Assembly: GCA_013265495.1 (NCBI GenBank) | Contig: MU057375.1 | Coordinates: 53,226-73,225 of the forward strand | DNA length: 20,000 nucleotides | Direction of reading: 5' to 3' | From: Vicugna vicugna | Taxonomy: Eukaryota | In this document: in pieces, positions 2,521-4,668 of the stretch | Layout: each line of letters starts with the position of its first letter | How positions within the stretch are numbered: position 1 is the stretch's first letter | Notes under the pieces: model-generated | What the model saw: the letters and a program-made list of their open reading frames with translations, nothing else | The model's database searches: none | Told to the model about the DNA's origin: nothing | Program-made: the position numbers and the translations under genes

Positions 2521-3127
2521 CTGGTGAACACGAGGAGTGAGGCCCCGGGCTGCCAAGTCTCTGAGCGCCGCAGCCCAGGCAGTTCTCTACCACCCTGCTG
2601 GCCTGCCTCCAAGCGTCCCTCCAGCTGGGAGTGAGGGGCACCCAGTGCCCTCTCTGAGCCATGAACAGGAGAGCACTACACGGCAAGGTTGAGACCCTGC
2701 AGTTACCCGGTTGAGAGGAGGGTAGAGGAAGGGAGTCAGGCAGGTATGGGAGGGGGCATCCTCCACAGTTTGCTCCTCATGGGGGCTCAGACACACAGTG
2801 ACCCTGGAGCCACTGTGCCTGCCCAGGCTGCTGCTGCCACAACCTCTGCTGCCTCCAAACAAGCTTCCTGAGCCATGGGAAGTGCCCCCACTGCACTGGC
2901 CTGGGCTTGGGCTGCCAACAATGCTACAGCCACAACCAGAGTAGGAGCAGGGGCCTGACAGCTGGACTGGGCTGGGATGGGGTGGGCGCACGACACAGAG
3001 GTTGGCATGCAGGGGAAGATGCACTGATGGCCTTGGCTCTCCAGGGGAGCAGCCTGGGACTGCACCCAAACCTGCGCCTCCCCATTCGGTGCTGCCCTTG
3101 GCACACACCCGGGGGACATGCAAGCAC
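2521..3127 (+). promoter_or_regulatory. Fossil (deaminated) CpG-island promoter/5'UTR of the GRID1 copy
   Basis: GC-rich but CpG-poor: manual count of 16 CpG in 2521-3480 and none in 2761-2940. TG/CA-rich runs such as GCTGCTGCTGCCACAACC resemble decayed (GCC)n. It lies directly upstream of the exon. Boundaries are approximate. Confidence 0.7.
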
Positions 3128-3206
3128 CTGGAAGAGCTAATGCTGTGGCTTCTACCCTTGATATGCCAATGCATGTCGGTGCAGGCCAACTCCATCATCC
3201 ACATCG
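3128..3206 (+). pseudogene. GRID1: Degenerate copy of GRID1 (glutamate receptor ionotropic delta-1) coding exon 1: signal peptide and start of the N-terminal domain
   Basis: Translates as [26 protein letters not shown](G). The human GRID1 N-terminus, as recalled, is [27 protein letters not shown], giving 20/27 identity. The start codon position reads CTG (3128-3130). The segment is 79 nt and ends in phase 1 at a donor-like G|GTGAAT (3207-3212). It lies within ORF-track entry 3002..3232. Confidence 0.92.
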
Positions 3207-3797
3207 GTGAATGTGGAGGGCAGTGGGGCTGAGGCTGGGTGGAGGCCCCAGTGGCTCACCCGGTGTGCAGAGTCCAAACATGGCTGTTCCCTGGGCTGAG
3301 GGGCTCAGCAGGTGGTTCTCCCCCAAAGGGCTGTGCCACACTGCCTGGCAGAGGAGATGTGCATGGGCCATGCTGCTGTCCCACTGGTTCTCACTGTTTC
3401 CCAGGATTCAAATCCCCACTCGGGGCCCTGAAGCCTCTGCCACCACATAGGGCCCAGGCTTTGAGGAACCTCTGGCTAGACGCACCTCCAGACCTGTGCC
3501 CCTGGCAGGGCTGTTGGCTGGATAGAACTAGCCCTTACCTTCAGTTAGAGCAGCGTGGGATGGGGGCAGACAGGACCTGGGGTTTCCCCAACTTGGCAGG
3601 GCAGGATCAAAGTGTCACATGCTGCTATGCATGAATGTATGTCAGTGGGTGTTTTCAGCATGTCACTGTGTACATGCCTGGCACCGTGTTGGTGTCACTG
3701 CAAGAAGGTGTTGGGGTGCGTGGGGCCATCAGAGCCTGTGTTGGTGTACACACTAGTGTCAGCATTTTAGAGTGGACAGTGTCTGCCTGTTTCCCTG

Positions 3798-3820
3798 GTG
3801 TGTGTGTGTGTATCTCTCAA

Positions 3821-3852
<32 letters not shown>

Positions 3853-3856
3853 TGTA
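3798..3856. repeat. Interrupted (TG)n microsatellite
   Basis: TG runs at 3799-3810 and 3821-3844 plus a degenerate tail. Confidence 0.95.
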
Positions 3857-3992
3857 TCTGTTTGTGGCAACAACAGCCCAATCCTGGACAGGACAGTCCC
3901 AGAGTTTCCCAAGGCCCAAATGTTGGGGGCAGGCAGATGGTCTGGGTGGTGGGAGCCAGGGGAGAAGCCTGAGTAGTGATGTGTTAGGGGAA

Positions 3993-4006
3993 TGTGTGTG
4001 TGTGTG
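3993..4006. repeat. (TG)7 microsatellite
   Basis: Seen directly. Confidence 0.85.
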
Positions 4007-4668
4007 GAGGAGATGAGCAGGATGAGACCAATGGACAGAGAACCAGGAGAGGAAAGAAGAGGAGAGGAGGAGGGGGCCTGGGGATAAGAAGTGTGGGGGA
4101 GTTGGTAACAGCAAGGGAGAAAACCCAGAAAGTTGGGTTGGGTTGGGGGACTAACAATGGTTGCTTTAGGGGAGCTCCTCTGCAGTAGCTTTTCAGGAAG
4201 TTGGGAAAGACCAGCAAGCCCAGAGAAACTGGGGGTTGGGAGCTATGAGAAGGCAGGAATGATGGGACTGATCAGGCAGGGGTGTGAGGGGCTAGGGGTG
4301 TGCTTGGTGTGCTGCAATCCCCAGGAAGAGACCAGGGCCAAGTCTGATTCCCAGTGGTGGGTGGTGGTGGCTCGGGTCTTGAGATCAGCCTCATGGCTCT
4401 GGGTATAGCATGGAAGGGGATCCCCCTCCTCCTGCCCAGCAGCCAGGTCCGGGGGTCATTGGGTCCAGCCCTGGGACTGTGGTGAACCTCATGGCCTGAA
4501 GAGGAGGGAGAAGTCTGGAGTTGTCCAGGCTGCACAGCCAGGCTCTGATGAGTCTGACTGATCTCAGGTGGAAGTGCACAGAGTCTGCCAAGGTGGTGCT
4601 AAGAATGCAAAGGGCCAGCTGGAGGCCATCCTGGAGGAGCTGTTCATGGTTTAAGAGCAGCACATTCT

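Follow-up and report, generated by a model that had tools for sequence, protein, structure and literature searches.

A probable non-functional duplicate of the GRID1 5′ end in Vicugna vicugna and the family of copies to which it belongs

Near the end of contig MU057375.1 in the Vicugna vicugna assembly GCA_013265495.1 lies a stretch resembling the first exon of GRID1, which encodes glutamate receptor delta-1 (GluD1), and the question raised by this locus is whether it is the gene itself, broken in this lineage, or a copy of it. The window considered here is the whole stretch of DNA that was analysed, 20,000 nucleotides (C40:53226-73225) whose end coincides with the end of the 73-kb contig C40; the genome searched comprises 2.03 Gb in 12,405 contigs. 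A preliminary description had reported a 79-nt exon with a GT donor, had taken it for a DNA-level copy rather than a retrocopy, and had left two explanations standing, a duplication or a disruption of the native gene. Our analysis indicates that window 1-4669 is very probably a non-functional, unprocessed duplicate of the GRID1 5′ end, comprising upstream DNA, a promoter that was formerly a CpG island, exon 1, its donor and 1.5 kb of intron 1. We infer that this window copy has no present-day function. Its parts, with the evidence for each, are:

1..1934 (+): DNA copied from 0.9-2.7 kb upstream of the native GRID1 start codon (blastn to C827:173997-175881)
1935..2319 (no strand): 385-bp insertion private to the window copy, repeated DNA (alignment breaks, word depth)
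2320..3127 (+): decayed copy of the GRID1 promoter and 5′ untranslated region, a former CpG island (74% identity to C827:175878-178359)
3128..3206 (+): GRID1 exon 1 coding remnant, ATG changed to CTG (translation, phmmer, alignment to the parental exon)
3207..4669 (+): initial 1.5 kb of GRID1 intron 1, copied from the GT donor onwards (blastn, alignment)

Two blastn alignments carry this assignment: window 1-1934 against C827:173997-175881 (81.2% identity over 1961 columns, E=0) and window 2320-4669 against C827:175878-178359 (74% identity, E=0). Colinearity with the parent takes in upstream DNA, exon 1, donor and intron 1, which makes the copy non-processed and DNA-level in origin, as had been proposed, and the extended flank alignment to GRID1 upstream and intron 1 sequence on which that proposal hinged was indeed found. 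The locus thus combines non-coding homology, an intact parent elsewhere, and lesions with truncation to exon 1 only, all features of an unprocessed pseudogene, whereas a processed one should hold neither the intron nor the more than 20 kb of upstream DNA seen here; the sole poly(A) tail belongs to an adjoining L1 element. Copied GRID1 DNA goes past window base 1 for at least 20 kb further upstream on C40. Of the span 2521..4668 first assigned to the fragment, the end therefore stands, homology stopping at 4669 where the L1 begins, while the start was arbitrary. At the parental locus the copy ends at C827:178359, 694 bp before the position of exon 2 (C827:179053-179214), and an exon 2 query against the genome returned no exon 2 copy on C40. 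The 385-bp insertion has no counterpart in the parent or in any other copy: alignments break at 1913-1934 and restart at 2320, and its contig word depth of 30-2400 versus 12-32 in the flanking DNA (four runs) marks it as a high-copy repeat. Just upstream of the former start codon the window copy also has a 14-base gap.

The exon 1 coding remnant occupies window 3128-3206 on the plus strand and is followed by GT at 3207-3208. Translation of 3128-3208 gives 27 residues that match GluD1 residues 2-27, and phmmer against PDB chains returned three GluD1 chains, 9jrd_A and 9jrf_B (both E=1.5e-6) and 9jre_A (E=2.5e-6), with query 2-27 on chain 2-27, before the next matches, unrelated TAL-effector repeats, at E ~1e-3 or worse. 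Compared with the genome's own intact exon 1, 12 of 81 nucleotides and 7 of 27 amino acids differ, the changes being seven non-synonymous and five synonymous. The initiator ATG has become CTG, codon 5 has changed from ACG to ATG, which creates a new in-frame start, and the donor reads GTGAAT against the parental GTGAGC, with loss of the +5 G. Translation, phmmer and parental alignment hence confirm the 79-nt exon, the donor and the 20/27 match to GluD1 that were first reported, and the released constraint also suspected at that stage is borne out by the lost ATG, the seven non-synonymous against five synonymous changes and a CpG observed/expected ratio (o/e) of 0.15-0.17 versus 0.80-0.87 in the parent.

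A second, intact and CpG-rich exon 1 in the WAPL-adjacent position had been named as the sign of duplication, and it is found on C827. This exon begins with an ATG at C827:176741 and is followed by a GTGAGC donor; 2 kb around it have 69% GC and a CpG o/e of 0.80, against 57% and 0.15 in window 2128-4127, and its 27 residues are 100% identical to source-named GluD1 proteins of several mammals. Exon 2 (residues 26-79) follows ~2.2 kb after exon 1. A gene-wide exon search with a GluD1 protein of 1009 aa (P0023) placed exons 3-16 between 49 and 543 kb on C6816 (12.8 Mb) at 74-99% identity to the query, and GRID2 is a separate locus on C8189. With the WAPL domain model PF07814, three exons free of stops were located at C827:97077-99728, 77 kb upstream of GRID1 and in the same orientation. 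C827 is the WAPL-adjacent native GRID1 locus; the functional gene appears intact on C827 and C6816, and GRID1 function appears unaffected. The assembly splits the native gene within intron 2, exons 1-2 lying 75 kb from the end of C827 (254 kb) and exon 3 49 kb from the start of C6816.

The window copy was first thought to be a single hidden duplicate of a single-copy gene, a view that could not be maintained: the region is carried by 11 loci, whether searched for with window 3000-3300 or with window 2320-4669 (C40, C827, C11084, C4856, C6141, C5868, C2951, C2714, C9390, C7854 and C5649), and a piece further upstream has 51 matches on 28 contigs. Codon 7 is changed from TGG to TGA in all six copies with a complete exon 1 (window copy and parent excluded), the three remaining loci holding only part of this exon, and a one-base insertion (+1 frameshift) and a GAG to TAG change are common to 6/6 copies that hold exon 2. 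Lesions held in common in this way indicate that most copies had a single ancestor, itself already disabled. Candidate exon 1 changes common to the window copy and other copies are either CpG transitions or absent from some copies (C7854 keeps GAC at codon 21). Kimura two-parameter (K2P) distances, computed on non-CpG columns, are:

Window copy to parent: 0.13-0.15
Other copies to parent: 0.12-0.19 (125-bp pieces on C9390/C5649: 0.06)
Window copy to other copies: 0.12-0.25
Among other copies, flanking segments: 0.07-0.12
Among other copies, former CpG-island segment: up to ~0.21
C6141/C4856: ~0.02
C2951/C5868: 0.004-0.015
C9390/C5649: ~0.006

In an unrooted maximum likelihood tree of 10 sequences over 4301 non-CpG columns (C5649 was excluded as too short), the eight other copies come out as a clade (support 100%, stem 0.034), and the branches of the window copy and the parent measure 0.103 and 0.050. 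From the three-way node, the window copy and the clade tips lie at similar distances (0.09-0.11), and the parent has undergone roughly half that change. Among the members of the family the window copy is the most decayed, and it split off early. Very roughly, ~0.10 substitutions per site may correspond to tens of millions of years at usual mammalian rates, and duplicated GC-rich DNA may evolve faster. Segmental duplications are defined, in a human catalogue, by at least 1 kb at 90% identity or more (PMC2978362). At 72-88% identity to the parent and to every other copy, the window copy falls below that threshold, which some sister pairs exceed: C6141/C4856, 95.5% identical over 7.2 kb, and C2951/C5868, with a p-distance of 0.006-0.028.

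CpG content bears on whether the window copy could still be in use. From 152 parental CpGs in window 2320-3500, nine are still CG, while 52 read TG and 48 CA, and in window 3500-4669 only 2/39 remain. CpG o/e of the exon segment is 0.17 in the window and 0.17-0.49 across all copies, against 0.87 in the parent. Active CpG islands have an o/e of ~0.6 or more and a GC content of 50% or more; window 2128-4127 has the GC content (57%) and lacks the o/e (0.15). This loss carries the signature of methylation-driven deamination and suggests a promoter long silent in the germline. Continued use could take several forms: an alternative or decoy promoter, the opening exon of a chimeric or long non-coding transcript, or a short open reading frame (ORF) that starts at the codon 5 ATG and is spliced at the kept donor. 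Such use would agree with the preserved GT and the gained in-frame start, and also with the 0-3 differences per 1.5 kb observed under three organism labels, although neutral DNA in close relatives predicts the same. We nevertheless consider continued use improbable, given that the low o/e and the deamination of 100/152 parental CpGs imply long germline methylation, unlike an active CpG-island promoter, and given that the donor has lost its +5 G, exon 2 is missing and sister copies have shared stops.

Downstream of 4669 the window holds no GRID1-derived DNA but two further features:

4670..11691 (+): old L1 with disrupted ORFs that extends from its 5′ end to a poly(A) tail (Pfam, poly(A) tract)
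11692..20000 (+): copy, 86-89% identical, of C3193:9048750-9057029, unrelated to GRID1 (sequence match, runs to the end of C40)

Pfam domains of the L1 are spread over separate ORF pieces, with Transposase_22 and Tnp_22_dsRBD at 6834-7214, Exo_endo_phos at 7741-8112 and RVT_1 at 8665-10101, and its poly(A) tail lies at ~11662-11695. Pfam searches of 16 of the 32 remaining window ORFs gave L1 domains only, and Rfam returned no match in the window at gathering thresholds. The 5′ end of the element adjoins GRID1-derived DNA on the same strand without a gap, GRID1 homology ending at 4669 and L1 starting with base 4670; the GRID1 fragment is thus bounded here by the L1 and not by a natural edge of the duplication. 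At the other end, the tail abuts the TTAAAAAA site of the C3193-derived segment. The source locus of that segment, on an 11.4-Mb contig, is without the L1, and a third, partial copy is found at C4119:24497-25912 (91%). Window 11692-20000 yielded no identified gene content. No target-site duplication was found flanking the L1. Because its tail sits on the TTAAAAAA site and the source locus lacks it, the L1 entered the C3193-derived segment, its 3′ end inserting in the usual way. In the window an L1 thus links two old duplications into a mosaic. Either an L1 insertion with loss of the DNA between the segments or an L1-L1 recombination could have removed the last 694 bp of intron 1 together with exon 2.

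With GRID1-derived DNA stopping exactly at the first base of a same-strand L1 that runs from 5′ end to tail, one might suppose that a transposable element moved the fragment, by L1 5′ transduction or DNA transposon capture. This is highly improbable: homology is colinear for at least 24 kb upstream of the L1, promoter-upstream DNA included, far beyond what a transcript-borne transduction could carry, and the other ten loci, the parent among them, continue through the L1 point without an L1, so that neither parent nor copies hold a source element at that position. The missing target-site duplication and the tail on the TTAAAAAA site, by which the L1 entered the C3193-derived segment, speak against such transport as well.

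That the window exon is the broken native 5′ end of GRID1, the gene being disrupted in this lineage, might be read from an exon without its ATG that an L1 separates from exon 2, but this second of the two initial explanations is rejected with hardly any doubt because an intact CpG-island exon 1, exon 2 and same-strand WAPL lie on C827 and exons 3-16 (74-99%) on C6816, and it is duplication that stands.

Support for the duplicate as a real piece of genomic DNA comes from other sequencing data. Twenty runs from 8 studies, under 3 organism labels, contain 85% or more of the words sampled from window 2521-4668; ten of these runs are flagged as possible sources of the window DNA and so do not count as independent support. 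No RNA run was among those found to contain it, the one RNA-like run being a targeted-capture library. Single contigs from runs X1, X2 and X14 cover 2259-3792 and 3868-4698 with 0-3 differences each; in run X20 the same span is covered by several shorter contigs with more differences. Depth over the window copy is in line with that of neighbouring non-repeat pieces. Inside the window copy there are (CA)n and (TG)n microsatellites at 961-1000 and 3798-3860, and short-read contigs break at the second of these (3793-3867). An assembly artefact, be it a haplotig or a collapsed or chimeric contig, could be argued from the position at the end of a 73-kb contig, from family members that are all on small contigs and from L1 joints that independent contigs leave unbridged under a 31-base rule, yet its probability is negligible when the non-CpG distance to the parent (0.13-0.15) is far above allelic difference and contigs from several studies' runs reproduce 2259-3792 and 3868-4698.

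How large the copied unit is can be read from the native contig. Parent and copies are colinear far beyond exon 1, two stretches of ~16 and 7.9 kb being parent-only. The upstream piece with 51 matches is C827:151700-153899, 25 kb upstream of exon 1, and one match reaches 96%. Eight other contigs match an intron 2 piece (C827:191700-201699), and six of them lose homology at one shared point, C827:195136-195141. Downstream of parental position 195136 on C6141 come 3.6 kb of repeat-like DNA, after which a 4.8-kb stretch aligns at 83% to C827:95285-99999, within WAPL and on the same strand. The copied unit on C6141 therefore takes in ~100 kb of native sequence (C827:95285-195136), from WAPL into GRID1 intron 2, and is arranged head to tail. 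WAPL pseudo-exons with two TGA stops each are found at C12170:17569-17778, C8231:423-632, C7543:12102-12311, C6141:78026-78235 and C4472:560-766. Contigs of the family are all small (29 contigs of 1-385 kb, 2.39 Mb in total including the 254-kb native C827), in contrast to C6816 with 12.8 Mb and C3193 with 11.4 Mb.

A Pfam search of 150 of the 182 stop-to-stop ORFs of at least 100 aa, covering 50 kb of native-locus DNA and the 20 kb that precede the window, gave 0 families, so that no hidden gene among the scanned ORFs explains the amplification. A simple tandem array between WAPL and GRID1 was considered and rejected: C827 holds one unit, with its parts of both genes intact, and continues past 195136 without a junction. 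We may speculate, doubtful as it is, that the ~100-kb unit is a lineage-specific head-to-tail amplicon spanning much of at least 29 unplaced contigs, in which the GRID1 promoter and exons 1-2 stand upstream of WAPL 3′ exons in a fusion-gene architecture, perhaps once or still transcribed in younger copies, and that the array is maybe pericentromeric, sex-linked or deep in GRID1 intron 2.

Several other observations concern single members of this family. The 96% match to the upstream piece, C10552:73334-75527, is much younger than the rest and is absent from the exon 1 matches. On C6141 a same-strand WAPL pseudo-exon follows the GRID1 exon 1-2 copy, the layout of a dead GRID1-WAPL fusion. Extra copies of GRID1 exon 3 (GluD1 residues 78-180) occur at C3111:28581-28880 (83% aa) and C2785:17771-18085 (78% aa), with no stop within the match; their small host contigs also carry the GRID1-upstream piece. 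C40 itself has two partial copies of GRID1-upstream DNA ~11.7 kb apart (C40:33257-38197 and C40:44916-57894), a local tandem re-duplication, and pairs of the upstream piece 12-18 kb apart are also present on C3111, C6141 and C4856.

Not everything favours the reading of the window as an old, silent and unprocessed duplicate within such a family. Identity to the parent, at 74-85%, is below the 90% threshold, and the copy is ancient rather than a segmental duplication of the annotated type. The tree has no outgroup and is unrooted, so one and two primary duplications are indistinguishable in it. Seven non-synonymous to five synonymous changes are too small a sample for a neutrality test. Silence of the copy is read from its CpG decay, and the kept GT donor together with the in-frame ATG gained at codon 5 gives, on paper, a short signal-peptide-like ORF with a donor. 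At the downstream end, short-read contigs reach only 29 bases into the L1, short of the 31-base bridging rule, leaving the joint between copy and L1 to the assembly. Lastly, the head-to-tail junction was read on one contig only, C6141.

We still consider an unprocessed duplicate by far the best account of window 1-4669. It might have arisen by an old duplicative transfer that carried a WAPL-GRID1 segment to a second site, after which local re-duplication occurred repeatedly. Duplicated pseudogene fragments are a known kind of locus, and what is noteworthy here is the duplication architecture, not the fragment. A literature search gave no description of these GRID1/WAPL copies among its top matches, as far as titles and abstract openings tell. 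In practical terms, gene predictors and read mappers applied to GRID1 and WAPL in this species can be misled by exon 1 look-alikes at ten extra loci, by two open exon 3 copies and by the WAPL pseudo-exons. The copy family also marks a region of repeated duplication that fragmented the assembly, with GRID1 split between C827 and C6816. Furthermore, the drop in promoter o/e from 0.87 to 0.17-0.49 among silent copies of one age class offers a clear within-genome case of CpG-island decay.

Comparable arrangements are known elsewhere. The title of PMC12970359 names a disorder of the human 10q22.3-q23.2 region. Low-copy repeats at human 10q22.3-q23.2 flank a segment with WAPL and GRID1, and the neighbourhood of the two genes is thus associated with duplicated blocks in both genomes; the duplicated unit here, however, is the WAPL-GRID1 sequence itself. 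Primate genomes hold mosaic blocks of duplications whose junctions carry repeats, and L1 insertion-mediated deletion and L1-L1 recombination are also known from them. The window resembles these cases in that the GRID1 5′ region and the C3193-derived segment are joined exactly at the ends of one L1, that a target-site duplication is absent and that the L1 tail is on a TTAAAA-type site. Data from one genome fit either of the two L1 processes, and the joint here is not independently bridged by reads.

The closest likeness is with human unprocessed pseudogene fragments in segmental duplications, which have been catalogued (PMC2978362) and are likewise DNA-level copies of part of a gene, with promoter, intron and splice signals kept, with lesions, and with an intact parent. 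Compared with these, the window copy is much older and more diverged, at 74-85% to its parent versus a class of at least 90%, its family was re-amplified to 11 loci after disabling, and its CpG island is almost wholly deaminated.

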